Positions 47,104-63,325 of a DNA stretch of 64,000 nt are shown piece after piece (position 1 is the stretch's first letter; every line of letters begins with the position of its first letter). Where the stretch lies: positions 2,657 through 66,656 of IMG/VR virus record IMGVR_UViG_3300025383_000001. One strand, 5' to 3'. Under the pieces are notes generated by a model. That model saw nothing but the letters and a program-made list of their open reading frames with translations. It was not told where the DNA came from and did no database searches. The position numbers and the translations under genes were made by a program. The stretch comes from a virus.

Positions 47104-47701
47104 CTTTTATCTCTACTGCTTCCACGTCTGTGACGTGTTTTAGCTGATCTAAACGAGATTCAGTCTTGGTTTTTGCGTTAATTGTGGTCGCCTGCATCAA
47201 TTGTGTGATGCGTTCTTTAATAGCGGCCTTTAATTCATCAGAAGTTTGGTGTGTAATTGTGATTTCTGAGCGTTCTGTGAACAAATCTGACGCTTTTCCG
47301 AGTAATTCGAGCGCTTTTAGTGCTGTTTTGTTATCTTCGTCCTGACTAATCTCCATTAGTCGGTTCATTACAATCGTGCGAACCTGTATTTTGTCCGCAA
47401 CAATTTGTTTTTCATACTCAGATATGTAACCACCTAGCTTATATGCTACGCCTGGATTAGTTAGAGCGTTCTCCGTGCTGTCCGCTTTCTTTGCTGTCTC
47501 TTTAACAGCGCCCATTTTTTCAAACATCTGCTTAGCAGCTTCGTCTTCTTCGGGTGTATAGGACATGTCTGCGCCGAGCTCAGCTAAAAGCAGTGCAGTA
47601 TTGCCAGCGACTTTTGCACGCTGCTCAAATGTCTGGCCTTTTTCTGGGTAGGCTAGATCGGGTACGGGTTTGTCGAGGTTTGGCTCGATTGGTATTTGCA
47701 T
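47084..47701 (-). CDS. Terminase small subunit (putative)
   Basis: Immediately upstream of TerL; LKALELLGK..LFTER helical motif. Confidence 0.65.
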   Translation of the reverse strand: MQIPIEPNLDKPVPDLAYPEKGQTFEQRAKVAGNTALLLAELGADMSYTPEEDEAAKQMFEKMGAVKETAKKADSTENALTNPGVAYKLGGYISEYEKQIVADKIQVRTIVMNRLMEISQDEDNKTALKALELLGKASDLFTERSEITITHQTSDELKAAIKERITQLMQATTINAKTKTESRLDQLKHVTDVEAVEIKDAETDE

Positions 47702-47811
47702 AGACCTGGTTTGGTAGGTTATATGCTGCCGACTATACCACAAAATGAAAATGGGGTACTACTAGAACCAATGTATGTGAAGCATTAAGAAACCTAGTTT
47801 CCCCCACCAAG

Positions 47812-47934
47812 TTATTTTACTTTGAAAAACTCTTTAATACTAGATAGCACTGACTGAACCCAGAACTCATTGATCTGCTGGTAATGCTTAGCCATCTGCT
47901 CTACTTTTTTGTATTGCTCTTCAAATGAAAACAT
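47812..47934 (-). CDS. 40-aa amphipathic peptide (phasin-like?); absent from the ORF track
   Basis: MFSFEEQYKKVEQMAKHYQQINEFWVQSVLSSIKEFFKVK; strong TAAGGAGA RBS. Confidence 0.65.
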   Translation of the reverse strand: MFSFEEQYKKVEQMAKHYQQINEFWVQSVLSSIKEFFKVK

Positions 47935-47952
47935 AATTTTCTCCTTAAGTTT

Positions 47953-47983
47953 TGCTGCAATGCAGCATAAAAGAATTCTATCA
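47953..47983 (-). promoter_or_regulatory. Extended -10 promoter with palindromic operator TGCTGC-N3-GCAGCA over the predicted start site
   Basis: Minus strand TG-A-TAGAAT (47983-47975); palindrome at 47953-47967. Confidence 0.55.
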
Positions 47984-48272
47984 CAAAAATATTATTGGGG
48001 GTATGGCACCAAATAAAAAAGGTATGGGGGGTGTTTTCTAGGATTAAATTAACAACATGTTGTCAGGAGATTAAGGCCCCCCTATGCACAAGAATAGATT
48101 GGGGTTAGTTGGTACTTATTGCCGGTTTTTAAATTTACATAATCTATTGTGCACATTATTGTGTATAGGTGTTGCCAGGGTCCTCTTTACCCTATCTTGG
48201 GGGCTGGGGGTAGGTAGGGTTCATATAACCAGCATTTAAAGCCCCTGGGAGCAGGTTTTATTAGACAGATAG

Positions 48273-48333
48273 TTTACTGCTGGGATTTGTCCTGGTGTAT
48301 AATGTACTTACCAGGTAGCAAGGTGTTACCTGG
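48273..48333 (+). promoter_or_regulatory. Promoter (TATAAT 48298-48303) followed by inverted repeat CCAGGTAGCA-AGG-TGTTACCTGG
   Basis: Perfect -10, weak -35 (TTTACT); 10-bp-arm palindrome right after the predicted +1. Confidence 0.5.
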
Positions 48334-48365
48334 ATTTAACCTAACCTTAAATGGGAGATTGTAAA

Positions 48366-48989
48366 ATGGAAAATACTTTCCAATTATCAGAAGTACAAAA
48401 CGACATGTTCACCAATATTGGCGTAACATTCGCAGTAGCTGAACTAGATGCTGATGCAGCACTGGAAGATTTTGCCAGGGCAGTAACAGTAAAGAATGAC
48501 CAGGGAGAGGATGTCGCATCCTATGATTTATGGGAATCAGGCATGGCAGTAGTGAAACAGGCTTATGCTGGTAAGAAAGGTGTAACCCTGGATTCAGATA
48601 CTATCAAGTCTATGGTTAAACGATTCTATCGTCGCCTGGAAGAGATGTATGGTTTAACTAAGCCAGCTAAGCCCAGCGCTGAAGGTCAGAAAAAAGCAGC
48701 GCAGCGCACAAAAGCCCAGGCAGCATTAGATGAACTCAAGTCTAAATCTTATGATGAACTCCAAGAAGAGATGGCTAATCTATTGGCTAAGCCCAGTACT
48801 GAAACCCTTGCTGCTGCTGGTAAGATCGCCAAGGCTATCAAGGCTAAAGAAAAGGATGATGTTAAAGACCGTATGACTGAGATCAAGGCTAAGCAAGCCG
48901 AAGTAGCTAAGCTAGCTAAACAATGCCTGGTGGAAGATATCCTGGAAGAATGCCTGGAGCTCTTAGCCGCTAACATCACTATTCAATAA
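48366..48989 (+). CDS. Early hypothetical protein, paralogue A
   Basis: GGGAGA RBS; shares KKAxQRxKA..SKSxxELxxEMANLLAxP with 49923-50501. Confidence 0.75.
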   Translation: MENTFQLSEVQNDMFTNIGVTFAVAELDADAALEDFARAVTVKNDQGEDVASYDLWESGMAVVKQAYAGKKGVTLDSDTIKSMVKRFYRRLEEMYGLTKPAKPSAEGQKKAAQRTKAQAALDELKSKSYDELQEEMANLLAKPSTETLAAAGKIAKAIKAKEKDDVKDRMTEIKAKQAEVAKLAKQCLVEDILEECLELLAANITIQ

Positions 48990-49035
48990 CCTATAACCAA
49001 GAAAGGATGCCCAGGGAAACCTGGGTATTTTAATT

Positions 49036-49272
49036 ATGCCTAGTTTAATTCTCAGTCCGGCCTATGGCCGGGATTATAAATCGAAGGCCGAAGTACTGTC
49101 GGCTTTCAATTCTGAAAAGGATTTTATTATCAATTCAGTAATGCCTGGTTATGCTGGTCTATATTGTAGTAAGCGGGATTTGTCCAGCTTTATTCGAGAT
49201 GGGTTTACTCATATTGAAATTAGATACCGCAAAATGACCATGTGCATTTTCCTGGATATACGCAAACTATAA
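49036..49272 (+). CDS. Small early protein
   Basis: LSPAYGRDYKSK..KDF..IRY pattern. Confidence 0.65.
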   Translation: MPSLILSPAYGRDYKSKAEVLSAFNSEKDFIINSVMPGYAGLYCSKRDLSSFIRDGFTHIEIRYRKMTMCIFLDIRKL

Positions 49273-49297
49273 CCAGGCAGCACCCAGTAGCACTAAG

Positions 49298-49326
49298 TCC
49301 CCAGGCATAGACCTGGGGATTTTTTT
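49298..49326 (+). terminator. Intrinsic terminator
   Basis: TCCCCAGG-CATAGA-CCTGGGGA-TTTTTTT. Confidence 0.8.
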
Positions 49327-49475
49327 GTCCCCAGTAAAAAATTAGGGAACTGGTTGTAAGCGACGCACTAGCCCGCAGGACAAAGTGTCACAATGCCACT
49401 ATGTCTTTCTCGGTTAAGCTCTGTAGCAGAGCTTAATATAATTTTATCGAGTTGTCAAGCATACCGAGTTTATAT

Positions 49476-49777
49476 TGTTCTAGCAATGTTCTACCTAATG
49501 TTCCTTGTAAGTCCTTGATTATAAAGGAATGTTCTATTGTTCCTAATGTTCCAAAAATTACTTTGCCCAAAATAATTTTACCGAGTGACAAAGACCCTCT
49601 ATGCAAGTGCAGATTGCACATGGTGAAATCAAATGAAAAAACCCCCTCGTAGTAAATTAAATATATAGAACAATAGAACAATATAAATAAATAACCCGCA
49701 AAGCCTTTATCTATAAGGCTTAGAGAATGTTCCATCACTTAGAACATTATAAGAACAATACCCTATTTTCTAGAACA
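49476..49777. repeat. Inverted array of TGTTC/GAACA units with an IHF consensus site (candidate pac/cos-like site or origin)
   Basis: Six TGTTC at 49476-49551, five GAACA plus one TGTTC at 49668-49777; TAAGTCCTTGATT (49508-49520) matches YAANNNNTTGATW; AT-rich and non-coding. Confidence 0.7.
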
Positions 49778-49791
49778 TATAGGACAAGTCC

Positions 49792-49820
49792 TTGACATTT
49801 CCCACCAAGTGTGCTATACT
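49792..49820 (+). promoter_or_regulatory. Strong early sigma70 promoter
   Basis: TTGACA, 17 bp, TATACT with TG extension. Confidence 0.88.
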
Positions 49821-49922
49821 GTATTTGTGAGTCGGAAATTGTTTTTGGTTCACATCAGGACAAAGTGGCAGAGTGACACTAAGTCCCAAACCCTAAACCT
49901 CACTCTATTGGAGATTGTTATT

Positions 49923-50501
49923 ATGGCAACAAAAACTGTAGTTAAAACGGCAGAAATGCTATCTCAATTTGACGAGCAAGAAAAGGCTCGTTTGGTATCT
50001 GCAACCCTTGCAATGGACTCTGGTGAAGACGAAGTTGCGGAAGCAATCGCAACGATTGCTCGTGAACTCGGTAGCAAACCTAGTTGGGCTCGCTATTCAA
50101 TGGGTCGCATTATCTTCGTTGAAACCCTCGAAGCACAGGGCAAAACCGAGGACGCTATCAAGTCCAAGTGGAAGCGGGTTTGTCGTGACTCTGCTATCAC
50201 TATTCCTGATAGTGATGACCCGCAAGCCAAGAAAAAGGCAGAGCAAAGGGCAAAGGCTCGTGCTGTATTTGAGAGCAAGTCCGACTCTGAACTAGAAGCG
50301 GAAATGGCAAACCTCTTGGCTCAACCTACTCTCAAGCGTATTGAGGAAGCCAAGAAACTTGGCAAGGAACTTGAGCAACGGCAGAAGGACGCAGGCAAGG
50401 ACATCAAAGCAGAACTTGCAGAACTCCGCAAGGCTATCCGTGACAAGGTCGCACTCATTGAGGACATTGAACAACTGCGTGAAATCCTCGACCAACTATA
50501 A
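49923..50501 (+). CDS. Early hypothetical protein, paralogue B
   Basis: GGAGA RBS, ATG 49923; paralogue of 48366-48989. Confidence 0.75.
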   Translation: MATKTVVKTAEMLSQFDEQEKARLVSATLAMDSGEDEVAEAIATIARELGSKPSWARYSMGRIIFVETLEAQGKTEDAIKSKWKRVCRDSAITIPDSDDPQAKKKAEQRAKARAVFESKSDSELEAEMANLLAQPTLKRIEEAKKLGKELEQRQKDAGKDIKAELAELRKAIRDKVALIEDIEQLREILDQL

Positions 50502-50522
50502 CTCAACCCGCAGTCCCTTTAT

Positions 50523-50551
50523 ACCCCGCCTAGTGCGGGGTTTTTTTATTT
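50523..50551 (+). terminator. Intrinsic terminator
   Basis: ACCCCGC-CTAGT-GCGGGGT-TTTTTT. Confidence 0.85.
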
Positions 50552-50552
50552 T

Positions 50553-50581
50553 CATGCCATCATGCCATCATGCCATCATGC
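50553..50581. repeat. Tandem repeat (CATGCCAT) x3.6
   Basis: Direct reading of the sequence. Confidence 0.9.
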
Positions 50582-50726
50582 GGACAAAGTGGCATCTTGA
50601 CACTATGTCTTTTATACCCCCATTATTTTTTATGGGAACTGGCTCGACGAGCGACGCACTAGGGAATTCGTTAGCATTGGGGACGAGATTTGGACTTTTT
50701 GGACTCCTGTAAGCTAGGACAAGTCC

Positions 50727-50755
50727 TTGACATTTACCACTAGATGTGGTATACT
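50727..50755 (+). promoter_or_regulatory. Strong early sigma70 promoter
   Basis: TTGACA, 17 bp, TATACT with TG extension; shares TAGGACAAGTCCTTGACATTT with the 49792 promoter. Confidence 0.88.
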
Positions 50756-50835
50756 AATAGAGTGGGAATTCGCCTACAACAACCAAACGACAAAGTGTCA
50801 CTATGCCACTATGTCCCAACCAAACGGAGTCAAGC

Positions 50836-50994
50836 ATGACAAGTAAAGAACAAGCCCAACTAACAGGCACGCTACAAAAACTGCTAACCCTTTGCCTCAA
50901 ATATCCGACCGCAGAAAACATTGCTCTCGCCAAAGAAGTAATGAAGACAATCAATGTAGTCGGTCTTCAATCCGCAGACAAAGTGGCAGAGTGA
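50836..50994 (+). CDS. Small early protein
   Basis: GGAG RBS after palindrome 4; stop codon lies inside palindrome 5. Confidence 0.6.
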   Translation: MTSKEQAQLTGTLQKLLTLCLKYPTAENIALAKEVMKTINVVGLQSADKVAE

Positions 50995-50998
50995 CACT

Positions 50999-51301
50999 AT
51001 GTCCAAACTCAAACTAACCTTCGAACCCGCAAGCCAAGTGCCACGCACCCACATCAGTCAGTCTTACTTGTGTGTTTCTCGTGTATCACATGATTGTGAT
51101 GTTCATGTAGAAGCAAGCCGAGCCGACTATCTCAAAGCAAACAATCTCCGCATGGTTTGCCACAAGTGTGGCGACGCACTAGCGACGCTAGAGTCCAAAC
51201 GCAAAGCAAGCATGGTTCAGATTCCGTATTCCAAAGGTGCGTATCAGTATATCCACAACCCCGACGAATTACGCTTTACTAACCCAAAGAGGACAACATG
51301 A
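50999..51301 (+). CDS. Early protein with Cys/His cluster
   Basis: CHKCG..PYSKGAYQYI..NPKRT; ATG lies inside palindrome 5. Confidence 0.6.
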   Translation: MSKLKLTFEPASQVPRTHISQSYLCVSRVSHDCDVHVEASRADYLKANNLRMVCHKCGDALATLESKRKASMVQIPYSKGAYQYIHNPDELRFTNPKRTT

Positions 51302-51465
51302 TGACCAAAGAAGAAGCCGACGCACTAATGCGTCTAACCGCCTACATGCTAGACGAGGATAAGTTAGCCGAATACAAGGGCTCTTTCCGTCAGCCAAACA
51401 ACGATGTAGAAATGCTCAACGATTACTTGTTGGGTCTTGATTCAACAGGGAGTTATCCAAAATGA
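51301..51465 (+). CDS. Small early protein (54 aa; absent from the ORF track)
   Basis: GAGGA RBS; overlapping start/stop codons on both sides. Confidence 0.5.
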   Translation: MTKEEADALMRLTAYMLDEDKLAEYKGSFRQPNNDVEMLNDYLLGLDSTGSYPK

Positions 51466-51686
51466 CCTACACATTCAAACCTCGCAGTCGCAAGAACCTA
51501 ATCGAGCAAGCCAATGCTCGTGCAATATCTACTCGAATCAAGCAGATGGCGACGCTTGAAGAAAAGCAGCAGCTTGTCGTTGAGACCAACCCTTTCTTGC
51601 ATATATTTGGCAAGCAACGCTTGGCTCAGGGTCATCTTGATTACAGCACTTGGCTTGACCGCATTTACATCGGGAGACGAAAGTGA
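51462..51686 (+). CDS. Small early protein
   Basis: GGGAG RBS; ATGA coupling. Confidence 0.55.
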   Translation: MTYTFKPRSRKNLIEQANARAISTRIKQMATLEEKQQLVVETNPFLHIFGKQRLAQGHLDYSTWLDRIYIGRRK

Positions 51687-51874
51687 AAGACTACCCGCCT
51701 TTCAGCGTCATGGACATAGCGATGGTCAAGGCTTGGAATTTCTGCATGGAATACGATTCGCACTCAGGTCGTGAAGTAGAACGCATGGGTGCAACCTACC
51801 TAAAAGAAGGCTATATCGAGGGCTTTCTTGCAGGCTTTTCACACAGGCTCGTAGGTGATGATGAAAATAGTTAA
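51683..51874 (+). CDS. Small early protein
   Basis: GGGAG RBS; GTGA coupling. Confidence 0.5.
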   Translation: MKDYPPFSVMDIAMVKAWNFCMEYDSHSGREVERMGATYLKEGYIEGFLAGFSHRLVGDDENS

Positions 51875-52037
51875 GTTATATCGTCATCCTGAAAAGCCTG
51901 AGTTCTATCTATTAGTCAAGCATGGTGAGATGGGACTGCTTGTGAATTACCCTATCGACAAACCTGATCGGAAACGACAGGCTCGGTGGTTTTCTTTAAA
52001 CGAAGTATATATAGATTGGATAAGGGAGTTTATATGA
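51861..52037 (+). CDS. Small early protein
   Basis: AGGT RBS; operon packing. Confidence 0.5.
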   Translation: MKIVKLYRHPEKPEFYLLVKHGEMGLLVNYPIDKPDRKRQARWFSLNEVYIDWIREFI

Positions 52038-52189
52038 TGTATTTATTCGGAGTAGTAATTCTTTTGACAACGATTATGGTTTCATCTGTTGCTTGGATAT
52101 GGGTAGACACACCCTTGCTTGCAATCGCTGGACTTGTCATATCGTCGTTTACCCTCGGCTTCATTCTAGGGGAGAACAGTAGTGACTGA
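52034..52189 (+). CDS. Small membrane protein with two TM helices
   Basis: AGGGAG RBS; hydrophobic. Confidence 0.55.
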   Translation: MMYLFGVVILLTTIMVSSVAWIWVDTPLLAIAGLVISSFTLGFILGENSSD

Positions 52190-52364
52190 GCATTACAAAG
52201 GGCAACGCATTGACGAATTGTTAGACATGATTGTCCGACTGCAGTATGCACTAGAAGAGAATAGAGATAGCGTCGACAGCGACGAGGTAGTTCGCCTCGT
52301 TGAATCAGAAGCTACCCTTGCAATTATGAAAGCAAAACTAACCGCACTACAAGGAGAAAAATGA
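52182..52364 (+). CDS. Small early protein
   Basis: GGGAG RBS, GTG start. Confidence 0.5.
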   Translation: MTEHYKGQRIDELLDMIVRLQYALEENRDSVDSDEVVRLVESEATLAIMKAKLTALQGEK

Positions 52365-52510
52365 ATGACAAGAAACTGAATGAACTCATGGCATTACTAA
52401 ACATGGCAAGCACTCGTGGGATTACCAAAGACCACATGAGATTGCTTGTTATTCAAGCACAAGAAATTGTGCGTCAACTAAAGAAGGAGAAGTTAAATGG
52501 CAAGACCTAG
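52361..52510 (+). CDS. Small early protein (49 aa; absent from the ORF track)
   Basis: AAGGAG RBS; ATGA coupling. Confidence 0.5.
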   Translation: MNDKKLNELMALLNMASTRGITKDHMRLLVIQAQEIVRQLKKEKLNGKT

Positions 52511-52790
52511 AAAAGCAAAACCCATGCCTGTCGAAGGCAACGCATTAGCACTAGACCTTAAAAACCCACAAAGTTTTGAAGGTGTCACCGACCCTCGCCA
52601 CGCAGTAGGCAGAACAAGCCGTAGTGCAAGCGAGGCATTCAAAGACGCAACCTATGCACAGTCAATGTGGAAATGCGAGTCTGATTTTGAATATGGAGTC
52701 CGCTTTGTCAGCGACATGGTGGTCGGTATGTTCACAGTCTTTATGTATTTACTAGTCCCTGTGTTATTAGCAGTTTGGTTATTTAGATAG
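52497..52790 (+). CDS. Small protein with C-terminal TM helix
   Basis: AAGGAG RBS; RSASEAF motif; stop codon overlaps palindrome 6. Confidence 0.6.
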   Translation: MARPRKAKPMPVEGNALALDLKNPQSFEGVTDPRHAVGRTSRSASEAFKDATYAQSMWKCESDFEYGVRFVSDMVVGMFTVFMYLLVPVLLAVWLFR

Positions 52791-52838
52791 ACAAAGTGTC
52801 ATTGTGACACTAAGTCCCTTTATTACGGAGTCAATTAA

Positions 52839-53540
52839 ATGATGAAACCTCAAGCATACGAAGCATTGCAAAAAGCAAAGGCACTATTTCGCCACCCAGC
52901 AGAAGTCGTGCAAGATGATATTCCATCTGAAGCAACACCAATCGAGCCTATTCGCAAACCACGAGTAGTCCTTTTACCACCCGATGCACCTAAGTTTGAC
53001 CAACACTCAATGAAAGAGGAACACAAAAAGATGGAACAAGCCAAACAAACCGAACTAGAAAACACCCTCGAAGAAATGGGGCTTACAACCCCAGCCATGA
53101 GAGAGCACAAAAAACAAATCGACAAGTATGCCGATATGTCTGTCACCAAAGCGTGTGAAGTTTGCCTTGCCAAAGGCATCAAGCAACCCGCAAATATTGC
53201 TAAAGAAACAGGCAAGAATGTAAATCAGATTTACACCGCCTTGTGGCATATCAAGCAACGCAAGAAAAAAGCCAAGGCTCAAGCCAAAGAAGCAAAGCGT
53301 TATGAGTATGACATGAGCAAGCCAAACCCCAAATTTGTAGCACCCAAGTCGTTGGACAAAGTGCAAGCCGATTGGGACAGAGAGCCGACTGCATGGGAAG
53401 ACGCACACAGGGTAGTCCTGCATGACAGGGAGTGGTATGAAGCCGAGATTGAAAAGCTAGCGACGGCTAACACCGACTTGCTTATCCAAATTCAAGAACT
53501 CAAAACCATCATCAAATACTTGGAAGGTAAATCCAAATGA
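52839..53540 (+). CDS. Early protein with possible HTH
   Basis: KQPANIAKETGKNVNQIYTALW resembles an HTH; C-terminal coiled coil. Confidence 0.55.
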   Translation: MMKPQAYEALQKAKALFRHPAEVVQDDIPSEATPIEPIRKPRVVLLPPDAPKFDQHSMKEEHKKMEQAKQTELENTLEEMGLTTPAMREHKKQIDKYADMSVTKACEVCLAKGIKQPANIAKETGKNVNQIYTALWHIKQRKKKAKAQAKEAKRYEYDMSKPNPKFVAPKSLDKVQADWDREPTAWEDAHRVVLHDREWYEAEIEKLATANTDLLIQIQELKTIIKYLEGKSK

Positions 53541-54487
53541 CATATACACATCAAGGGTATAACTGTGCCCGCATTCCAGCACTCGCAAACTATGCTCAAG
53601 CAAAAGAGCATTACCAATCCGTTGCACCCATTCGTGGGAGAAACCCCGAAGTCAGACCTCTTGGTAAGAACCGCCGCTTTACATGGTTCACTATCAACGA
53701 GAAGCACACGGTCTTGCCCGAATCTGATGACCCACTCGGTTCATTCGACATCGCCTATATTCTGCGTTGTTGGAACACCGACTTGATTACATTTCACAGT
53801 AATGGTGACATTGTTCTCAAGGATACTAGTTGGCATAGCCCGACGACGATGGGTTTCATGACCTTTTCATTGCAGGCTTTCGGTTCAATCATATCCAAGC
53901 GAGGCAAATGGTATTTCCAAAACAGCAAGGGGGAGAGTTTTCTTTTCCACAATGAAATGACTCTACGACAAAACGACGATGGGTTTGTCCGACCCAAAGA
54001 AGAAGTTGTAGAGAAGCGATACCGACTGTCACGCAAAGCGATGAACTCTATTCGCAAGAAATACAAGGGCTTTATCGAATACGGGAAGAACGCTTTGTCT
54101 ATCGACCCGACTGTCACAAGGCTTGAAGTTGCCGAGGCTAATCATGGCTTGTCATTTCAAGACACACATCTTGTGCCTTATTACTCGTGGAATAGCCCCA
54201 ACACCGACGGGTCTAACCGCACAAAGCTTTTTCAAGCATTGGATAGCTTTAATCAGTCTGGGGATTTAACCCTAGCTTACGAGTTGCTTTGCTATGTAGC
54301 ACAGTCGGTCGGTCGGTATAACTACCATAAGCAAATCATTGTGTGTGAACCTAATTGGTTTGTAAACAGAATGACCGAAGCAATGAAGTATCAATTCGCC
54401 AAAGAATTGTTTGTCGAAGAAACAGTAGAGAAGGGTGTCGTCTTTCATGATGACAATATTAAGTATGTAGCAAGAAGTGCGAAGTAA
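53537..54487 (+). CDS. Hypothetical early protein
   Basis: 316-aa ORF with ATGA coupling. Confidence 0.65.
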   Translation: MTYTHQGYNCARIPALANYAQAKEHYQSVAPIRGRNPEVRPLGKNRRFTWFTINEKHTVLPESDDPLGSFDIAYILRCWNTDLITFHSNGDIVLKDTSWHSPTTMGFMTFSLQAFGSIISKRGKWYFQNSKGESFLFHNEMTLRQNDDGFVRPKEEVVEKRYRLSRKAMNSIRKKYKGFIEYGKNALSIDPTVTRLEVAEANHGLSFQDTHLVPYYSWNSPNTDGSNRTKLFQALDSFNQSGDLTLAYELLCYVAQSVGRYNYHKQIIVCEPNWFVNRMTEAMKYQFAKELFVEETVEKGVVFHDDNIKYVARSAK

Positions 54488-54552
54488 GGGACAAAGTGTC
54501 ATGGTGACACTATGTCTTAGTTTTAAATCTAACTTAAATAAAGGAAACGGAA

Positions 54553-55647
54553 ATGTCGGAAGTATTATTAAATAAATTCTCTACCCTCAAAGAAGCAGAG
54601 GATATGATTGTGTCTTGTGGTGCTGGCGCAACCTTTCACCTTATGGGCGAACCAGGTGTAGGCAAAACCTCAATGTTCCGCAATATTGTTGCAAGAACTG
54701 GCTATAAAGGTATTTACATTGACGCACCAAACATCGAGCTTGGAGAATTGGGAATCCCAATCCCTAACCACGAAACCAAAACTACTCGCATTTATCCAAA
54801 CGAGCAATGGGGTTTCCACCTAAACGAGCCGCTTGTTATCTTCATCGACGAGTTCACCAAAGCCATGCAAGGTGTTAAGAATATGTTGCACCCAATGCTT
54901 AACGAGCCACGCATGGTTATGGGTATCCCATTGCACGAGAAAACGATAGTCGTAACGGCAGGTAATTACACTACCGACGGTGTAGGCGACACAATGATGA
55001 GCCATTCTCGCAATCGTATCTCTGTGGTCAATGTCAAGAAACCGCACGCAGGCTTTAATCCTGATGGCTCTATTGATGCTGACTCATGGGGTGAATGGGC
55101 AGTCAAGAATGATGTAGTCCCCGAAGTATTGGCATGGGTAAAGAATAACCCTCAAGCACTAGCCTCATACTTAGACCCATCACAGGCTGGCAACAAATAC
55201 ATCTTCAATCCAAAAGAAGCACAGAAGTCTTTTGTGTCGCCCCGCTCATTGGTTCGTGCAAGTAATATTCTCAAGCACAGAGCCGACTGCACAACGACAG
55301 CCATTACTTGTGCATTGGAAGGGACTATCGGAGCACCTGCGGCTAGGGATTTGATGGCATTCGTAGATGTGGCGGATAGCCTACCGACATGGGAAGCAAT
55401 CATCAAAGACCCACAAACCGCTACCGTGCCGACTAGTCCAGCAGCCTTGTGCTTACTTGCTTTTAGTGCAGTAAATAGAGTTGACCGCAACACCATCTCT
55501 AAATTCTTTGACTACCTCAAGCGGACTCCAAAAGAGTTGCAATCTGTCTTCTGCTTAACAGGCATGAAGAACGACGAGAAGAAAAAGACATTCTTAACCA
55601 GCCAAGCATTTACTGATTGGATGCGTGAGAACCAATACTTGTTCTAA
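54553..55647 (+). CDS. AAA+ ATPase (MoxR/CbbQ-like)
   Basis: GEPGVGKT Walker A, IFIDEF Walker B, TAGN, SRNR Arg finger, SPRS sensor. Confidence 0.85.
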   Translation: MSEVLLNKFSTLKEAEDMIVSCGAGATFHLMGEPGVGKTSMFRNIVARTGYKGIYIDAPNIELGELGIPIPNHETKTTRIYPNEQWGFHLNEPLVIFIDEFTKAMQGVKNMLHPMLNEPRMVMGIPLHEKTIVVTAGNYTTDGVGDTMMSHSRNRISVVNVKKPHAGFNPDGSIDADSWGEWAVKNDVVPEVLAWVKNNPQALASYLDPSQAGNKYIFNPKEAQKSFVSPRSLVRASNILKHRADCTTTAITCALEGTIGAPAARDLMAFVDVADSLPTWEAIIKDPQTATVPTSPAALCLLAFSAVNRVDRNTISKFFDYLKRTPKELQSVFCLTGMKNDEKKKTFLTSQAFTDWMRENQYLF

Positions 55648-55694
55648 ACGACAGAGTGTCATGGTGACACTTTGTCCTAACCTAAGGAAACTAT

Positions 55695-55979
55695 ATGAAA
55701 AAGAAAATGACAGACGAAATGTTTGAACAAGCAAATCGTCTTAAAAACGACATTGGCACTTTGCTAGAAGCGTCTGATGTAGAACTTGGATTGATACTGC
55801 CTGTGTTGATTGCAATCACTTGTGAAGCGGCGATTATCCAAGCTGAAATGAAACCGCACGAGTTTCTACGCTCAATCACAAATGGTGTATGTGCAATGAT
55901 TGACTTATCTCAGGAAGTTGAGGAAGAAGAAGATGATGAACCAACCGATGGAAGGAATAATATTCAATGGCTAAACTAA
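55695..55979 (+). CDS. Small acidic protein
   Basis: AAGGA RBS after palindrome 8; acidic C-terminus. Confidence 0.6.
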   Translation: MKKKMTDEMFEQANRLKNDIGTLLEASDVELGLILPVLIAITCEAAIIQAEMKPHEFLRSITNGVCAMIDLSQEVEEEEDDEPTDGRNNIQWLN

Positions 55980-57202
55980 CTGCCGAACAACGCATCGAAA
56001 GATGCCATGTGCAACTTATGAAGCACAGGAACTTTGCCCTGTTCTCAGGCTTATTTATGATTGGCAAGGTGACTGTTGCCGAAAACACCAATCATGGAAC
56101 TGCGGCGACTAATGGTGTTGATGTGACCTATGACAGAGCATTCGTCGATAGGCTCAACGATAAGCAACTAGCCTTTCTTATACTGCACGAGAATATGCAC
56201 AAGGCTTATCGACATCTTGTCGTATGGGAAAGCCTGCATCGCAAGAATAGGATGCTCGCAAATGCGGCGTGCGACTATGTCATAAATTTACAGATTCGTG
56301 ATTATGACCCTAGCGAATACGATACGCAATTCCCAACCGACGAGTTCGGCAATCAGATGGGTTTGATTGACGAGAAGTATCGTGGCATGGACTCTGCCCA
56401 AGTATTCAAGCTACTCGAAGAAGAACATGGCGGTGGTGGCGGTGGTGGCGGTGGTGATGGTGATGGAAAAATCTTTGTCGTAGGCGATGGCAACGGATTC
56501 GACCATCACGATTGGGAAGATGCACAAGAACTATCCGATACCGAAAAGGAAGAAATAGCCAAAGAGATTGAGTCTGCGTTGCGTCAGGGCTCTATCCTAG
56601 TCGGCAAGCTAGGCGGTAATGTTTCTCGTGAGATAGGCGACATGCTAACTCCCAAAGTAGATTGGAAAGAAGCGTTGCGTGATTTCGTCAAGTCATCCAC
56701 GCAAGGCAAGGAAAAGTCTACATGGAAGCGACTGCATAAACGCTATATCGGTATGGATATCGTGATGCCCTCACAATATTCTGAAAAGGTAGGCGGCATT
56801 GCTATCGGTATCGACACATCAGGCTCGATTGGTTCGGAAGAACTTAATCAATTCTTATCTGAAGTTAAGTCTATCTGCGAAGAAGTATCACCCGAACAGA
56901 TTGATTTGCTTTATTGGGATACTCATGTGGCTTCTAGAGAAACATATATGCAGAACGAGCTTGCAGGTCTGGAACAAAACACCAAGCCAGCAGGCGGTGG
57001 TGGGACTGACCCGACTTGTGTGCCTAAGTTTATGGCGAAGCATGATATCAAAGCCGAGTGCCTTATCTTTCTGACCGATGGATATATCGGGCGACAAAAC
57101 CCAAGCGACTATTCAAGCCTGACCATGCCTGTGTTGTGGTGCATCAAAGGCAATAGTCATTTTAACGAAGCCGTAGTTGGCAAAGTAGTTCATGTTGAAT
57201 AA
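55967..57202 (+). CDS. Metallopeptidase plus VWA domain protein (DUF2201-like)
   Basis: TAATNG, LHENMH (HExxH), NAACDYVIN; MIDAS DTSGS..GGGT..LTDG. Confidence 0.88.
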   Translation: MAKLTAEQRIERCHVQLMKHRNFALFSGLFMIGKVTVAENTNHGTAATNGVDVTYDRAFVDRLNDKQLAFLILHENMHKAYRHLVVWESLHRKNRMLANAACDYVINLQIRDYDPSEYDTQFPTDEFGNQMGLIDEKYRGMDSAQVFKLLEEEHGGGGGGGGGDGDGKIFVVGDGNGFDHHDWEDAQELSDTEKEEIAKEIESALRQGSILVGKLGGNVSREIGDMLTPKVDWKEALRDFVKSSTQGKEKSTWKRLHKRYIGMDIVMPSQYSEKVGGIAIGIDTSGSIGSEELNQFLSEVKSICEEVSPEQIDLLYWDTHVASRETYMQNELAGLEQNTKPAGGGGTDPTCVPKFMAKHDIKAECLIFLTDGYIGRQNPSDYSSLTMPVLWCIKGNSHFNEAVVGKVVHVE

Positions 57203-57212
57203 GGAGAAACAA

Positions 57213-57443
57213 ATGATTGAAACCAAAATGCCGAAAGGCAGAGCAAGAGATGGAAAGATAAACATCAGCCTCAACCCTGAGACTGTTGCTCAACTCGTCG
57301 TAGTAAAAGATGATATCGGAACTGCCCTGGGCTTTTCCGTATCGTATTCCCAAGCAATACAACACCTCATTAAGCATTTCAACCAACGGACAGAGTGTCA
57401 AGGTGACACTTTGTCCCAACCAAACGGAGAGTCAAATGAATAA
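57213..57443 (+). CDS. Possible ribbon-helix-helix protein
   Basis: KINISLNPETVAQL..SYSQAIQHLI; AAGGAG RBS; 3' end contains palindrome 9. Confidence 0.5.
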   Translation: MIETKMPKGRARDGKINISLNPETVAQLVVVKDDIGTALGFSVSYSQAIQHLIKHFNQRTECQGDTLSQPNGESNE

Positions 57444-58323
57444 CTCAATCAACATCTCATCATCAGCCATGCTAGTCGAACTAAGCATCCGTAGTTGGAC
57501 TGCACGCAAGTTGGACAAGCGTGTTTCTAGCGAAGTAGATACGGCTAAAGGGGCAAAGACCAGAGTGGTAAACGCAAACAAGAACCTACTCGCAGGCACA
57601 GGGGTTCTTGATACCATCATCAAGTATGCCGCCAATGCTCGTGCATGGCACAACGCACAAACTCTGCCGTGGTCTGACAACGGCTCTCGCTTGTTGCCTG
57701 TATCTAACTTTGTAAATTACAAAGAGCAACTCAATGTGCTTGAGCAGAACTACACCGCATTGGTCGGTAAGTTTATCACCGCATACCCAGACCTAGTTAG
57801 TGCGGCTGCGTTTCAGTTGGGCGACTTGTTCGATAGGTCAGAGTATCCCGACGCAAGCAAGATAGCGACGAAGTTTAGTTTCAATTACAGTTTCTTTCCT
57901 GTGCCGACTGCTGGCAGTTTTCTTCCCGACCTAATCGAAGAAGCCAAGCGTGAAGTGCAAGACAGTTGCAGTAAGGCTTACGACGAGCGTCTTAACAATG
58001 CAATGCGTGAAGCGTGGGATAGGTTGCATGATTGTCTTATTCGTATGAGTGAGCGACTAGCACCAGCAACACCAAGACCATTAAAGGATGGGACATTTAC
58101 TGATGTTCCTGTATTCCGTGACAGCCTTGTCGAGAATGCGTTAGAGTTAACAAGCCTCCTAACACATTTTAATCTTACGAACGACCACAATCTTGACCTT
58201 GCCAAGCAAGAGTTGTATCAGGCAATCAAGAACCACGATGCCGACTCGCTACGCAAAAACGCACAGGCTCGTGAAGTAGTCAAGGCAAAGGTAGATGCGA
58301 TTCTTAACAAGTTTAATTTCTAA
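57436..58323 (+). CDS. DUF3150-like protein
   Basis: WTARKLD..TLPW..RLLP..LGDLFDRSEYP pattern; usually accompanies AAA/VWA genes in phages. Confidence 0.6.
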   Translation: MNNSINISSSAMLVELSIRSWTARKLDKRVSSEVDTAKGAKTRVVNANKNLLAGTGVLDTIIKYAANARAWHNAQTLPWSDNGSRLLPVSNFVNYKEQLNVLEQNYTALVGKFITAYPDLVSAAAFQLGDLFDRSEYPDASKIATKFSFNYSFFPVPTAGSFLPDLIEEAKREVQDSCSKAYDERLNNAMREAWDRLHDCLIRMSERLAPATPRPLKDGTFTDVPVFRDSLVENALELTSLLTHFNLTNDHNLDLAKQELYQAIKNHDADSLRKNAQAREVVKAKVDAILNKFNF

Positions 58324-58332
58324 GGGGTAAGT

Positions 58333-59202
58333 ATGATAGCAATAGATAAATCAGTCTTAAAGAAAGAATACCGAGACGCAGAGGTTGACCAAATGCTGGT
58401 TAACTTTGCCGACTTGGTAGGCTTTGCCAAGCCATGTTGCAATTTCGTGTTAGACGATAACTGCGTGGACAGGGAATGGGTAGTCGACGAGCAGAACAAA
58501 AGTCTCAGCAAACACTATATCCGTAGGCTCAGGGTGTTTGAGAACGGCGAGGAGTTGGGCGACATAGGTGTGTCTAGACGCTACACAGGCGGTTCGTCTG
58601 ACATGGTCTACAAGGTTCGAAGTTTTCGTATTGTCAAAGAACGGGGCGACCGCAACGGAGTGACGGCTAAAGATATTAAGGTTGCTCTCCGCCACGCTAA
58701 AAAAGTATTTGTTTCTAGAGAATCAGCAGAACTTATAGCCCAAGTAAAAAATGCAGTAGACAGCCATGTTAATTATCTAGAAAGCCGAACATGCCATCAG
58801 TTGCAATGGACTATGGATAGTATGGCGACTAGTGTAGACCTTGCTTTGCACGCACAAGAAGCTAGGCGAAAGGGGGAGCAAGTAGTTTCCGTTCCTTTGA
58901 GTATGGTCAGGGTTAATAATAAAATAGAAGACCACGATGCGGCTTGCGATAGATACAGAGAAGCTAAGTCTTTGTTAGATGGTATACAAAATGGCAAAGG
59001 CTATGGTGTATTTTGTCGCATTGACAATAGCTTAGTTGTGTATAGCTATTCTACGAACACGGTTAAGCGATACGCTAGCTTTGAAGAATTGCCCGAACCC
59101 ATACAGAGTAAGTATGCAATGTTCAAGGTTCTCGACAAAGAAGAGCCACACGAAACAATCGGATGCAAGTTTGATGAGGGCTACTTTTATGTGGTAGAGT
59201 AG
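58333..59202 (+). CDS. Hypothetical protein
   Basis: 289-aa ORF with AAGGGG RBS. Confidence 0.65.
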   Translation: MIAIDKSVLKKEYRDAEVDQMLVNFADLVGFAKPCCNFVLDDNCVDREWVVDEQNKSLSKHYIRRLRVFENGEELGDIGVSRRYTGGSSDMVYKVRSFRIVKERGDRNGVTAKDIKVALRHAKKVFVSRESAELIAQVKNAVDSHVNYLESRTCHQLQWTMDSMATSVDLALHAQEARRKGEQVVSVPLSMVRVNNKIEDHDAACDRYREAKSLLDGIQNGKGYGVFCRIDNSLVVYSYSTNTVKRYASFEELPEPIQSKYAMFKVLDKEEPHETIGCKFDEGYFYVVE

Positions 59203-59328
59203 TCTCTGACTTCCGTGGGAATTTTTGATTGGGTTTGTAGAACCTAGTATGATGCGAAGCAAGCCACGGCTTATGCCGACAATCTCCCCCTAGCGTAAGT
59301 AGGATACGCAATCTACTTGACCTACACC

Positions 59329-59352
59329 AAGCCACCTTCGGGTGGCTTTTTT
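59329..59352 (+). terminator. Intrinsic terminator ending the early operon
   Basis: AAGCCACC-TTCG-GGTGGCTT-TTTT. Confidence 0.9.
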
Positions 59353-59412
59353 ATTGGGACAAAGTGTCACGATGACACTATGTCTTCGGGTTAACACCTA
59401 CAAAAAAACTTC

Positions 59413-59440
59413 TTGCATTTATCTGGGGAAGGACTATACT
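59413..59440 (+). promoter_or_regulatory. Sigma70-like promoter for the DNA metabolism operon
   Basis: TTGCAT, 16 bp, TATACT with an upstream A-tract. Confidence 0.55.
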
Positions 59441-59469
59441 GTGTCAATAATTATATTAAAGGATGCAGT

Positions 59470-59772
59470 ATGACCCCCGAATCAAAGGTCAAAGCTCAAG
59501 TAGTTAAGCTACTTAAAGAGAATGACATATATTACTTCTTTCCAGCCACGCACGGTTATGGTCGTTCGGGTGTGCCCGATATTGTCTGTTGCTACAATAG
59601 CCAGTTCCTAGCCATAGAATGCAAAGCAGGCAAGGGCAAAACAACTGCACTCCAAGAAAAAGAAATTAAAAAGATTCGTGATGCGGGTGGACATGCCTTT
59701 GTCATCAACGAGACCAACATTCACACACTAGCCTTGTATTTATTGGGGGGACAAGATGACGACCGATGCTAA
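59470..59772 (+). CDS. VRR-NUC domain nuclease (Holliday junction resolvase-like)
   Basis: TPESKVK..GVPDI..AIECKA..TALQ..GG. Confidence 0.88.
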   Translation: MTPESKVKAQVVKLLKENDIYYFFPATHGYGRSGVPDIVCCYNSQFLAIECKAGKGKTTALQEKEIKKIRDAGGHAFVINETNIHTLALYLLGGQDDDRC

Positions 59773-60049
59773 AAGTATGACCAGTTCCAAAGAAATGAAC
59801 AACGGTATTGAAATTATTTTAAAGCGGATGGAAACCCACCCCGAAGAATTTTATGGGGAAAGCAAGAAGTGGGCATTCATGTATAAAGAATATTTCCGTG
59901 ACATTATGACTGAGTCCGAGAAAGCCGCCATTCACGAGAAGCTGAAGGAAATCCGTCGTGCGGAATTAACTTATCAAGTAATGCGGACAATGACAGAAGA
60001 GCCTGAGTATGAATACAAATGGGTGGCTGACACTAGGGTTAAATACTAA
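59756..60049 (+). CDS. Hypothetical protein
   Basis: ILKRMETHPEEF motif; operon packing. Confidence 0.55.
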   Translation: MTTDAKSMTSSKEMNNGIEIILKRMETHPEEFYGESKKWAFMYKEYFRDIMTESEKAAIHEKLKEIRRAELTYQVMRTMTEEPEYEYKWVADTRVKY

Positions 60050-60471
60050 TGAGCCTAGTCAAAGCCTTCGAGCAAGAACTCTACGATAAATACGACGCAC
60101 CAGCAAAGGAAGCGGTTGCTCGCTACCTGATGGACACTTGCGGGTATGAAGTCACTCCCAATAACGACGCCTACGGCATCGACCTTTTGGTCAAAAAAGC
60201 TGGCTCAACGATTGGTGCAGTAGAAGTAGAAGTCCGCCAATGGAGTCCTATTTGTCCGTTCCCAACAATCCACGTGCCTAGCCGTAAGACTAAATTTTTT
60301 GGTGGTAACTCTTTGTTCTTTGCTTTAACAAAAGACATGAAGCACGCATATTGGATTGAGTCTAAAGAAATACTCAAGCATCCAATGAAAGAAGTTCGTA
60401 ATGTAAAAGTCGTAAGTGGTGAATTGTTTTACGATGTGCCGACTAACGAATTTAATTTTGTAGATTTATGA
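60049..60471 (+). CDS. PD-(D/E)XK-like nuclease-fold protein
   Basis: YGIDL..AVEVEVR. Confidence 0.55.
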   Translation: MSLVKAFEQELYDKYDAPAKEAVARYLMDTCGYEVTPNNDAYGIDLLVKKAGSTIGAVEVEVRQWSPICPFPTIHVPSRKTKFFGGNSLFFALTKDMKHAYWIESKEILKHPMKEVRNVKVVSGELFYDVPTNEFNFVDL

Positions 60472-62300: not shown

Positions 62301-62473
62301 AAGTCGAGTATATCCCTATGTATTTAGAAGCGATGAGAGAAATAAAAATGGCACACGATGCGTTGATACGAAACAATTACCAAGCAGCTTATGAGCACTG
62401 CCTAAATGCTCAGACTGAAATGAAGCTAATGAGTGGCGCAGTTAAAAGCTGGTTGCCTACAAACGATGCCTAA
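62288..62473 (+). CDS. Small hypothetical protein
   Basis: Operon packing. Confidence 0.5.
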   Translation: MEELKVEYIPMYLEAMREIKMAHDALIRNNYQAAYEHCLNAQTEMKLMSGAVKSWLPTNDA

Positions 62474-63143
62474 TTTTATTTGGTCATACTCATCGCTTGG
62501 GTTGTTTCAGCAATGCCCTAGAAAATACTACCACTTGCGGGTAGTAAAGGATATTAAAGAACCCGAATCCGAGCACATGTTGTATGGAAAGCTAGTGCAT
62601 GAAGCGGCTGAAAAACACATCAGAGACGGCGTTCCAGTCCCAGCAATGTACTCATTCCTTACTCCAGTATTGGATGTGCTTAAAGCTATACCAGGTGATA
62701 AGCATTGTGAATACAAAATGGGTTTGACCGAAACCTTAGAAGCTTGCGACTTCTTTGACAAAGAAAATGTATGGTTTCGTGGTGTAGCTGACCTATTGAT
62801 AATTAACGGTAAATTGGCACATATTATTGACTACAAGACAGGCAAGTCTGCCCAGTATGCCGATACTAAACAACTAGAACTTATGGCTCTTGCGGTGTTC
62901 AAACACTTTCCTGAGGTAGAAAAAGTTAAGGCTGGGCTAGCGTTTGTAGTAAGCGAGGAATTTGTAAAAGCCAATTACGACAAAGATAAATCTCCCGAAA
63001 TGTGGCTCAACTGGATTCAAGAAACAGACAGATTAAATGCGGCTCATACCAACAAAGTATGGAATCCAAAGCCTAACTTTACTTGTAGAAAATTTTGCCC
63101 AGTAAAGGATTGCGAGCATAACGGAAAAGGACATTACAGATGA
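62466..63143 (+). CDS. Cas4-like PD-(D/E)XK exonuclease
   Basis: WSYS..CPRKY, G..VH, RGVAD..IDYKTG, QL; C-terminal CRKFCPVKDC Fe-S cysteines. Confidence 0.85.
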   Translation: MPNFIWSYSSLGLFQQCPRKYYHLRVVKDIKEPESEHMLYGKLVHEAAEKHIRDGVPVPAMYSFLTPVLDVLKAIPGDKHCEYKMGLTETLEACDFFDKENVWFRGVADLLIINGKLAHIIDYKTGKSAQYADTKQLELMALAVFKHFPEVEKVKAGLAFVVSEEFVKANYDKDKSPEMWLNWIQETDRLNAAHTNKVWNPKPNFTCRKFCPVKDCEHNGKGHYR

Positions 63144-63325
63144 ACGAAGAAGATTTAAGGGATTGCTTTGCGATGTTTGCGATGCTTGGTTTTATGAGCA
63201 GAGGAAGCGTTTGGGAATATAAGGAAGCATGGGAAGTAGCAGACGGAATGTTAGAAGCACGCAATAAAGAAGAACCTGAAGTTGGTATTGTTGCAGTTAA
63301 AAAGAGGAGAACGAAAAATGATTAA
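63140..63325 (+). CDS. Small conserved phage protein
   Basis: LRDCFA..AM..ADGMLEAR motif. Confidence 0.65.
   Translation: MNEEDLRDCFAMFAMLGFMSRGSVWEYKEAWEVADGMLEARNKEEPEVGIVAVKKRRTKND

Follow-up and report, generated by a model that had tools for sequence, protein, structure and literature searches.

Why would a virus keep some 11 kb of its genome almost free of the short palindromes that restriction enzymes recognize, and confine ten copies of another, longer palindrome to the same stretch? The question is raised by the IMG/VR virus record IMGVR_UViG_3300025383_000001, of which we analyzed a window of 64,000 nucleotides (bases 2657–66656 of the 66,656-bp contig; coordinates below are window positions unless stated). 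A sequence-only reading of the window had pointed to four signals that switch near 49.3 kb: an island of CCWGG sites ends, a desert of palindromes begins, 27-bp palindromic sites begin, and an array of iterons with integration host factor (IHF) sites lies between two paralogous genes. These were taken together as a DNA entry and protection system. The island, the desert, the 27-bp sites and the array are all present where that reading placed them, far beyond chance, and at 49.3 kb no more than 70 bp separate the stop of the island, the beginning of the desert and the first of the 27-bp sites.

The desert was assessed with seven words: ACGT, GTAC, GCGC, GATC, GGCC, CCGG and CCWGG. Its core (49317–60271, plus strand) contains no ACGT, GTAC, GGCC, CCGG or CGCG and two CCWGG sites, it is also without GGWCC, and a single GATC and a single GCGC occur in about 12 kb of desert. 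The individual gaps are long. ACGT is missing between 47133 and 60272 (13.1 kb), GTAC between 49093 and 61333 (12.2 kb), GGCC over 17 kb and CCGG over 21 kb, and three CCWGG sites are found in the 14.7 kb from 49317 to 64000, a dearth with a Poisson probability of about 1e-5. Four-nucleotide palindromes overall fall beyond 50 kb to about 70 per 2 kb, compared with about 110 earlier; TCGA, CATG, CTAG and TGCA remain common. The desert block makes up about 16% of the genome. It was originally drawn to end at 59440, which is too early: the desert reaches about 60.27 kb and is followed by a zone of partial avoidance (60272–64000, plus strand) that takes in the genes for PolA and an exonuclease and crosses the contig junction to about window position 3580.

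This loss exceeds what codon usage would lead one to expect. The virion genes lie on the minus strand and run leftward from 47.7 kb, and a plus-strand block extends from 48.35 kb across the contig junction to about 9.2 kb of the window. Synonymous-codon shuffles (n = 500) that keep each protein and its codon usage give 124.6 ± 8.9 of the seven words in the core genes (8.9 kb), where 3 are observed, and none of the 500 shuffles is as low. In the late virion genes the same words occur 298 times versus 302.6 ± 13.2 after shuffling. Word by word, three tiers emerge: avoidance is near-total in the core, partial in the rest of the plus block (z −2 to −4) and absent from the late block.

A scan of IMG/VR with the pattern of the 27-bp sites returned 17 stretches from about eleven contigs, and five of these relatives (G001–G005; three genomes that are 88–97% complete and two fragments) were compared with the studied genome (G000). 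Each carries 8–10 sites over about 9.2–9.7 kb, and the order of genes is the same in all: a small terminase gene and, divergently from it, paralogue A, (orf78), the noncoding array, paralogue B and early genes, then downstream an AAA ATPase gene, a DUF2201 gene, a DUF3150-like gene, orf289, an Hjc-like gene and PolA. In all six genomes the stretch that bears the sites is the stretch that lacks the words. Four of five further contig fragments agree, with 0–2 words per kb inside and 5–20 outside; the fifth (L012) is without ACGT, GGCC, CCGG and CCWGG and retains GTAC, GCGC and GATC. The early proteins of the desert-bearing genomes are only 30–80% identical to each other. A near-identity nucleotide search of 47–60 kb in cultured phages gave no match. 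Two relatives of the large terminase (TerL) from outside this group were considered and set aside: in DSL-LC04 the gene order is different and collinear, and Planktothrix phage Pag-Yong1 has 68.9% GC, no regional desert and no 27-bp sites.

The avoided words differ between lineages. In the pooled cores of the six genomes (62 kb) the seven most depleted of the 136 canonical tetramers are all palindromes, with observed/expected ratios of 0–0.18, and the eighth is CCAG, a part of CCWGG. Outside the cores the same seven tetramers have ratios of 0.45–1.0, with the exception of CGCG. GATC is present at normal frequency in the deserts of G004 and G005, and AGCT is additionally avoided in G001 and G004. 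Such lineage-specific sets are as expected if the restriction-modification (R-M) repertoires of the hosts drive the pattern. Single words can also be lost from an entire genome, unlike the regional desert: GATC does not occur in the 60.7 kb of G003, and GTAC does not occur in the 65 kb of Pag-Yong1.

Because the depletion strikes palindromes, exceeds the codon-usage expectation and varies by lineage, we read the avoidance as driven by restriction. On these sequence patterns the desert appears to be the signature of selection by restriction enzymes, acting in place and tuned to different hosts, and neither a compositional accident nor a single inherited event.

The desert is also polar. Pooled over the six genomes, the density of six words is 14–19 per kb upstream of the first 27-bp site (site 1), 0.5–1.0 per kb in the first 10 kb beyond it and 5.5 per kb at 10–12 kb; it then climbs through 8–12 per kb between 12 and 22 kb and returns to about 15 per kb at 22–30 kb. 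The left edge is therefore sharp (in G000 and G002 alike, 67 bp separate the final CCWGG from site 1), and the right side consists of a step followed by a slope over about 20 kb. The recovery leads away from the terminase genes, along the path of early transcription. The earlier suggestion that this DNA is exposed first fits the polar profile; the order of entry itself is something we infer.

Host-type promoters stand close to the sharp edge. P1 (49792–49820, plus strand) matches 11 of 12 positions of the sigma-70 consensus, has a GGACA element upstream and is conserved in the alignment of relatives; P2 (50727–50755, plus strand) also matches 11 of 12. They lie 0.41 and 1.35 kb from site 1 and are directed into the desert. 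P2 opens an operon of about 8.6 kb in which no strong plus-strand terminator occurs before 59329. The terminator that closes the operon (59329–59348, plus strand), the last 27-bp site and a third sigma-70-like promoter, P3 (59413–59440, plus strand; TTGCAT, a 16-nt spacer and TATACT, conserved in G001, G004 and G005), are clustered at 59.33–59.44 kb, near the right edge of the core.

We propose that the DNA at about 49.32–60.27 kb is an early-gene block that would be exposed to host restriction before any countermeasure of the phage acts, and that selection has removed from it the short palindromes cut by the enzymes of its hosts. The virion DNA would have a fixed end in the conserved noncoding region at 49.33–49.9 kb, beside the terminase genes, and this end would enter first. 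Host RNA polymerase, starting inward from P1 and P2, would transcribe the DNA and probably help to draw it in, and an early product would then render the DNA that enters later indifferent to most type II enzymes. Such a sequence of events would account for the abrupt left edge, the near-zero plateau of about 10 kb, the slow downstream recovery and the lack of avoidance in late genes. We prefer ordered entry to the alternatives because of the sharp edge by the terminase genes, the inward host promoters, the operon-length plateau and the graded recovery. For the combined proposal of ordered, probably transcription-paced entry from a fixed end near 49.33 kb, followed by an early and broad counter-restriction function, we regard the chances as evenly balanced.

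Several observations weigh against this proposal. The contig and unitig assemblies from the four best public metagenome runs bridge the 49.3-kb boundary, and permuted ends would agree equally well with the circular assembly. Pfam, PHROG, and structure and cluster searches of the early block revealed no anti-restriction gene, and we know of no clear precedent for a single protein that neutralizes many type II enzymes, except for the unexplained case of phage T5. Two words do not behave as a timing model predicts. CGCG is missing from the whole 66.5-kb genome, where 70–105 would be expected in 46.8 kb from composition or Markov models, and from the late genes, where codon shuffles predict 37. 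TCGA has a reversed bias: it occurs 22 times in the late block (9238–47103) versus 41.2 expected (z −4), and it is not avoided in the core (49923–60049; 30 versus 37.2). Among the relatives, CGCG is nearly absent from G001, G002, G004 and G005, and G003 contains 40 copies, none of them in its desert.

The idea that the boundary lies at the genome end proved wrong. The ends of the contig are an exact 127-bp repeat inside an open reading frame (ORF) that spans the junction; this apparent direct terminal repeat is an assembly overlap, the contig end is arbitrary, and the genome of about 66.5 kb assembles as a circle. A different signal was found around the 49.3-kb boundary. The unitig 46795–50546 (3.75 kb) is deeper than its flanks, about 1.55-fold in three metagenome runs and about 1.5-fold in a fourth, with branch points of the assembly graph inside the TerL gene and at the terminator after paralogue B, and with alternative flanks at both ends. 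A co-occurring strain that shares this boundary module fits the raised depth better than a terminal repeat does.

That sharing, with branch points at both ends, points to recombination at this boundary and raises the possibility of a mosaic origin, in which the early block came from a phage lineage adapted to hosts richer in R-M systems and the desert would be history without present function. Phage replication and early modules are commonly exchanged, and the opposite regional bias of TCGA would also be in keeping with such an origin. However, the desert is kept where the early proteins are only 30–80% identical, and words that differ by lineage call for continuing selection in place. A swapped module should also show two sharp edges rather than one sharp and one gradual. 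The core has the same GC content as the late genes, and its dinucleotide distance to them (94–122) is close to that among late chunks (40–93), although the dinucleotide signature is not a discriminating test of foreign origin. We consider this history improbable.

A second alternative retains selection and discards ordered entry. The whole genome might enter at once, and cuts in the early block might be lethal by stopping the expression of repair, ligation or anti-nuclease functions, with later cuts mended or irrelevant. The early and middle blocks do encode an Hjc/VRR-NUC-like nuclease, a PD-(D/E)XK exonuclease and an SNF2 helicase, and the contig data yielded no virion terminus. A preprint on phiKMV-like phages reports ligase-dependent repair against DNA-targeting nucleases; Pfam and PHROG scans of the present genome found no ligase. 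A simple division into early and not early would not be expected to produce a graded recovery over some 20 kb along the direction of transcription, and zero avoidance in the late genes (298 versus 303 words) would need essentially perfect repair. Entry at once thus seems unlikely to us, and the ordered-entry proposal stays in front.

A third possibility is that virion DNA carries a protective modification everywhere but in the early block, made for example by a cluster of glycosyltransferase, methyltransferase and radical-SAM enzymes. The plus block encodes GT10-like, FkbM-like methyltransferase, radical SAM/SPASM, GT2 and Anp1-like proteins within its replication genes (contig positions 44–3425 and window positions 760–2237, plus strand), and the avoidance of GGCC and CCGG extends up to, or just past, this cluster and stops there. 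Glycans are the more usual substrates of enzymes of the GT, FkbM and radical-SAM types, neither a base-hydroxymethylase nor a DNA methyltransferase was found, and CGCG is avoided genome-wide. To our knowledge no mechanism excludes DNA modification from a contiguous 10 kb, and we judge this explanation to be very improbable. Family searches for DNA methyltransferases of the C5, N6/N4 and D12 classes found none encoded in the genome, with positive controls detected; since none of these three classes is encoded, the indifference of the late genes is not due to self-methylation.

The second question is what the 27-bp sites do. The element consists of two 12-bp arms around a 3-nt center. Ten copies span 49379–59384 and none occurs elsewhere in the 66.6-kb genome; a reversed-pattern control gave 0 matches. 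All are on the plus strand. Site 1 (49379–49405) stands at the boundary, and site 2 (49859–49885) is in the P1 leader, 37 nt before the start of the gene for paralogue B. Site 3 (50583–50609) abuts a tandem repeat, (TCATGCCA)x4, at 50552–50583; site 4 (50789–50815) is in the P2 leader and is followed by site 5 (50977–51003). Site 6 (52790–52816) lies 22 nt before the start of orf233, site 7 (54490–54516) precedes the gene for a MoxR-like AAA ATPase (54553–55647), site 8 is at 55650–55676, site 9 (57389–57415) lies 20 nt before the start (57436) of the DUF3150-like gene, and site 10 (59358–59384) is between the operon terminator and P3. Over the six genomes, a ribosome-binding site (RBS) and a start codon come after 40 of the 57 sites, the median distance being 22.5 nt (usual range 14–37 nt), and the remaining 17 are mostly beside terminators, promoters or the array. 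Thirteen of the 27 columns are invariant over the 57 sites, and the three central columns vary freely.

As RNA, the sites fold at −8 to −20 kcal/mol. Their pairing, though, is not the conserved property. In a test of base-pair covariation with 48 distinct sites, a single cell showed change on both sides, and five measures of pairing were at or below those of shuffled alignments, with 491–500 of 500 shuffles at least as high. Pair 5–23 is unpaired in 38 of the 48 distinct sites, a conserved mismatch in the arms. Pair 10–18 is broken in 14 of 48 and never compensated; the change is always T to G in one arm only, mostly at promoter-proximal sites. Site 1 is inverted in G001, G004 and G005, and one orthologous site is mirror-changed in G002. 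Rfam contains no family that matches the 27-bp site at E values up to 1.

From their placement, we take the sites to belong to the expression apparatus of the early block, as regulatory signals that lead its cistrons. They most likely act either as operators or as hairpins in the polycistronic RNA. Operators for a dimeric protein would be our first choice, though we would put it somewhat short of an even chance. Hairpins in the early RNA with a processing, stabilizing or translational role come second, at somewhat lower odds, and promoters for an unrecognized enzyme would be a poor bet. The right arm and last loop base of the sites at 49859–59384 do resemble the conserved core of SP6/T7-type promoters, but we set a phage promoter aside as the main reading, since no polymerase turned up and some sites are mirror-changed. 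Promoters of the kind used by N4 or T7 polymerases are also made unlikely by the freely varying loop and by the inverted sites.

The search for a phage RNA polymerase took several forms. PF00940 gave no match in six frames, in a weak search whose control matched in no genome. A motif scan of all ORFs of at least 150 amino acids found PolA as the sole polymerase, and for the virion proteins of 2074 and 894 amino acids neither PDB sequence searches nor PHROG annotations point to an RNA polymerase. A sigma-factor match (E 0.44) and a Sigma70_r3 match (E 0.07) from the sequence searches were treated as noise.

If the sites are operators, a candidate for their binding partner is orf233 (52839–53540, plus strand). 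Its AlphaFold2 model predicts a three-helix core that resembles a helix-turn-helix (HTH; residues ~100–154, pLDDT 91–96) and a C-terminal coiled coil. Fold matches are weak, which counts against the assignment: they have E values above 0.3 and are nearly all to HTH proteins, and those to KorB/ParB-type HTH domains are above 1. On the strength of the model we nominate orf233 as the best candidate binder of the 27-bp sites.

The proposal that a phage protein binds the entering DNA at intervals and protects it gives the sites another role, as docking points for a protein that physically shields the first-entering DNA, with the iteron array as a T5-like injection pause. In all six genomes the sites do cover the same extent as the core desert, the phage has a large LPD39 virion protein that matches a DarB-like PHROG, and repeats and palindromes are also abundant in the stop region of T5. 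Nothing indicates shielding, however, and a shield would make the purge needless; DNA that is shielded would not be selected for near-total loss of restriction sites. Ten sites per 10 kb are too few to cover the DNA, and the finding that 40 of 57 sites immediately precede an RBS and start codon suggests a role in gene expression. The array lies at the start of the desert, while a stop signal of the T5 type would be expected at its far end, near 60 kb. Of the explanations weighed here, shielding with a pause strikes us as the least probable.

The boundary itself is a dense noncoding region bordered by two related genes. Paralogue A (parA, our label, unrelated to the partition protein ParA; 48366–48989, plus strand) lies outside the desert and is conserved in 5 of 5 relatives. 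Paralogue B (parB, also our label; 49923–50501, plus strand) is the first gene inside it. The two are true paralogues (BLASTP E = 1e-15). The predicted structure of parB is confident and all-helical and has no fold match in PDB (best E 0.6). Its family comprises 220 database clusters, all of them unnamed, and a protein search found no member in 50,697 cultured-phage records. A terminator follows parB (50523–50541, plus strand).

Between the paralogues is the iteron array (49476–49777), with 12 TGTTCY/RGAACA words in inverted groups where 0.41 would be expected, and an A+T content of 67%. The IHF component of the earlier description rests on a single match to the consensus. The pattern of iteron spacing is kept in 5 of 6 genomes, and the array is a conserved cis element that could serve as an origin, a packaging site or a control region. 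Two further elements lie between the boundary and the array. A 30-nt block just inside the boundary (motif X; 49344–49373, plus strand) is nearly invariant in five genomes, and a palindrome with 11-bp arms and a 3-nt spacer (49413–49437, plus strand) has one arm change that is compensated in relatives. Motif X has a second copy at 50634–50664, and a terminator and a 27-bp site adjoin each copy; the second one is seemingly rearranged into inverted sub-motifs in G001, G004 and G005. The noncoding architecture as a whole aligns over five genomes, and G003 differs.

The CCWGG island (48175–49316) precedes this region. Its 20 sites (48175–49312) fall in parA, orf78, their upstream region and two terminator hairpins, at 17.5 per kb versus 1.27 per kb in 1–48174 (Poisson P ~2e-16). 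The last gene before the boundary, orf78 (49036–49272, plus strand), also carries two CCGG and three GGCC sites, and a hairpin with a T run that resembles an intrinsic terminator (49295–49322, plus strand) holds the last two CCWGG. The two genes of the island contain 10 CCWGG compared with 2.5 in synonymous shuffles (z +5.9). The coding copies are mostly in one codon phase, consisting of a C-ending codon, CTG or CAG, and a G-starting codon. The island is real and selected at the DNA level.

Here the expectation that all four signals would recur together in relatives held in part: sites and desert coincide in 6 of 6 genomes and the array is present in 5 of 6, but the island is found in only 2 of 6. 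The parA gene contains 8 sites in G000, 12 in G002 and none in the other four genomes. Only three alignment columns with CCWGG are common to G000 and G002, which are not sister lineages. By this comparison the island appears to be lineage-specific, outside the conserved system, and possibly convergent in the two lineages. Nothing was found to link the island to the small terminase subunit (TerS): the G000 and G002 versions of this protein resemble each other no more than the others do.

In lambda, terminase-binding sites are found between the cut and the small-terminase gene. If the virion DNA has the fixed end proposed above, the island would occupy the same position, at the last-entering and first-packaged end. 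We also entertain a more elaborate scenario, of which we are skeptical, in which entry from a fixed end is paced by host transcription, a 'safe leader' of about 11 kb, cleared of all restriction words that matter locally, uses the ten palindromes to time or gate its expression, a product of the leader immunizes the remaining ~80% of the genome against many type II enzymes, and the CCWGG array at the last-entering end is readable by methylation or titrates an enzyme in two lineages.

Several proteins of the early block have recognizable relatives. The MoxR-like AAA ATPase (region 54553–57202) has cultured-phage relatives at 25–28% identity, largely in N4-like phages of Vibrio, Pseudomonas, Achromobacter and others; relatives also occur in Planktothrix and Synechococcus phages with a VWA gene nearby. 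The DUF2201 protein (55967–57202, plus strand), with metallopeptidase-like and VWA-like domains, is 67–76% identical in the relatives. Its gene contains a 9-nt tandem repeat that encodes a Gly-rich linker (56428–56463), a place where reads seem to be cut. The 94-residue product of orf94 (55695–55979) has a pI of 4.2 and an acidic tail, with 20 Asp and Glu residues; its composition resembles that of DNA-mimic anti-restriction proteins, and no evidence of homology was found. ESM Atlas searches place orf316 and orf295 with viral hypothetical clusters, that of orf295 carrying DUF3150. PDB sequence searches with orf289, orf295 and the 2074-aa and 894-aa proteins gave nothing significant, and the Pag-Yong1 proteins beside its VWA gene, including one annotated AcrVA2, have no similarity to orf295 or orf289.

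The genome, which is present in public freshwater metagenome runs, has the gene content of a tailed phage, and its virion module is podovirus-like (Pfam and PHROG scans). The module contains a large terminase, portal, capsid, SU10-type adaptors, a chitinase-like endolysin, an ejection protein and the 2074-aa LPD39 protein. The large terminase gene (45544–47103, minus strand; PHROG 38, E = 2e-104, and Pfam Terminase_6C) starts the leftward virion block. The adjacent gene (47084–47743, minus strand) had no family match in Pfam and PHROG scans and is a putative small terminase gene by position; it is syntenic and 51–62% identical in G001–G004. The 2074-aa protein (9238–15462, minus strand) has an LPD39 polyvalent-protein domain and matches a PHROG annotated as 'DarB-like antirestriction' at E = 5e-53, so it may be an ejected counter-defense protein. 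The plus block begins with small early genes and continues with the AAA ATPase, DUF2201 (peptidase/VWA), the Hjc-like nuclease, PolA, the PD-(D/E)XK exonuclease and, in its later part, the glycosyltransferase/FkbM/radical-SAM cluster, the SNF2 helicase and a DUF927 primase-helicase.

The footprint described here consists of an approximately 40-fold avoidance in early genes and none in late genes; it is polar, and its word sets are lineage-specific. The rule that the first-exposed DNA is the vulnerable DNA has so far been based on a few laboratory phages, namely T5/BF23, relatives of T7 and Marinomonas murciaviruses. Patterns of this kind might be used to locate leading ends and the direction of entry computationally in metagenomic phages, or as a read-out of the restriction specificities of their hosts. 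A broad anti-restriction function, if encoded, may be held by one of a short list of genes: parB, orf316, the AAA ATPase, the DUF2201 VWA/peptidase protein, the DUF3150-like protein and orf289. Immunity conferred by such a leader, if true, would be a general anti-restriction mechanism of a kind unexplained even in T5.

Several known systems share parts of this arrangement. The sites have a likeness to the dispersed palindromic operators of a global regulator, such as the KorB operators of plasmid RK2 and the C1 operators of phage P1. As in those systems, about ten copies of one conserved palindrome stand at the starts of operons or cistrons in a defined region, and a cognate HTH protein is plausibly encoded nearby (candidate orf233). 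The sites here differ in that they lie downstream of promoters or inside the operon and have the conserved 5/23 mismatch in the arms (38 of 48 sites).

In N4 (Schitoviridae), inverted repeats with a 3-nt center are likewise confined to the first-entering early region and genome entry is coupled to early transcription, and the MoxR-like AAA ATPase is related to those of N4-like phages (25–27% identity). However, the promoters of N4 number three and are marked by a GC-rich heptamer and specific loop bases, compared with ten sites with 12-bp arms and a freely varying loop, and no virion RNA polymerase is detectable here. One orthologous site also reads the opposite way in G002, which a promoter could not tolerate.

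T7 offers a parallel for the proposed mode of entry. RNase III sites lie between the early cistrons of T7, and repeated elements capable of forming hairpins lie between early cistrons here, although the latter, at 27 nt, fall short of the length of RNase III sites and lack covariation. Strong host-type promoters are located about 0.4–1.4 kb from the presumed leading end and point inward, and the early genes are read in the direction of entry. In contrast to T7, no phage RNA polymerase was found, and the virion genes are divergent from the early genes rather than collinear with them. T7 ejects about 850 bp, and its early region is then pulled in by host RNA polymerase that starts at leading-end promoters (PMC11863960). 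For Autographiviridae of Marinomonas, a second report states that Type I R-M motifs matter only in the leading region (PMC12455610).

The closest parallel is provided by T5 and BF23. R-M and CRISPR can act on these phages only where their targets lie in the first-step-transfer DNA, the remaining genome being indifferent to them, and the protected state of T5 depends on early gene products of unexplained mechanism. Here too, sites are tolerated outside the presumed first-entering region and not inside it, as an evolutionary footprint only, and a repeat-rich, conserved noncoding control region adjoins the early genes. The phage studied here is unrelated to T5, with podovirus-like virion genes (SU10-type adaptor), and 7–10 tetranucleotide words are avoided with a gradual fade compared with the single step of T5. 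Annotations resembling the T5 proteins A1 and A2 were not seen in general scans, which included no dedicated A1/A2 search.

The claim that no described system has this combination was thus overstated: the rule for the first-entering region has been published for T5/BF23 and for Autographiviridae, and the principle of leading-region avoidance is already known. In the literature consulted, with subscription journals largely uncovered, region-limited avoidance appears in the T5, BF23 and Autographiviridae work and no multi-word purge of this kind was found. What is new is the occurrence of this avoidance, without a recognizable phage polymerase, in an abundant uncultured freshwater clade unrelated to T5 and T7, together with the strength and cleanness of the footprint, its polar gradient, and the fact that it is coupled to a palindrome in ten copies and to an iteron region that is conserved.

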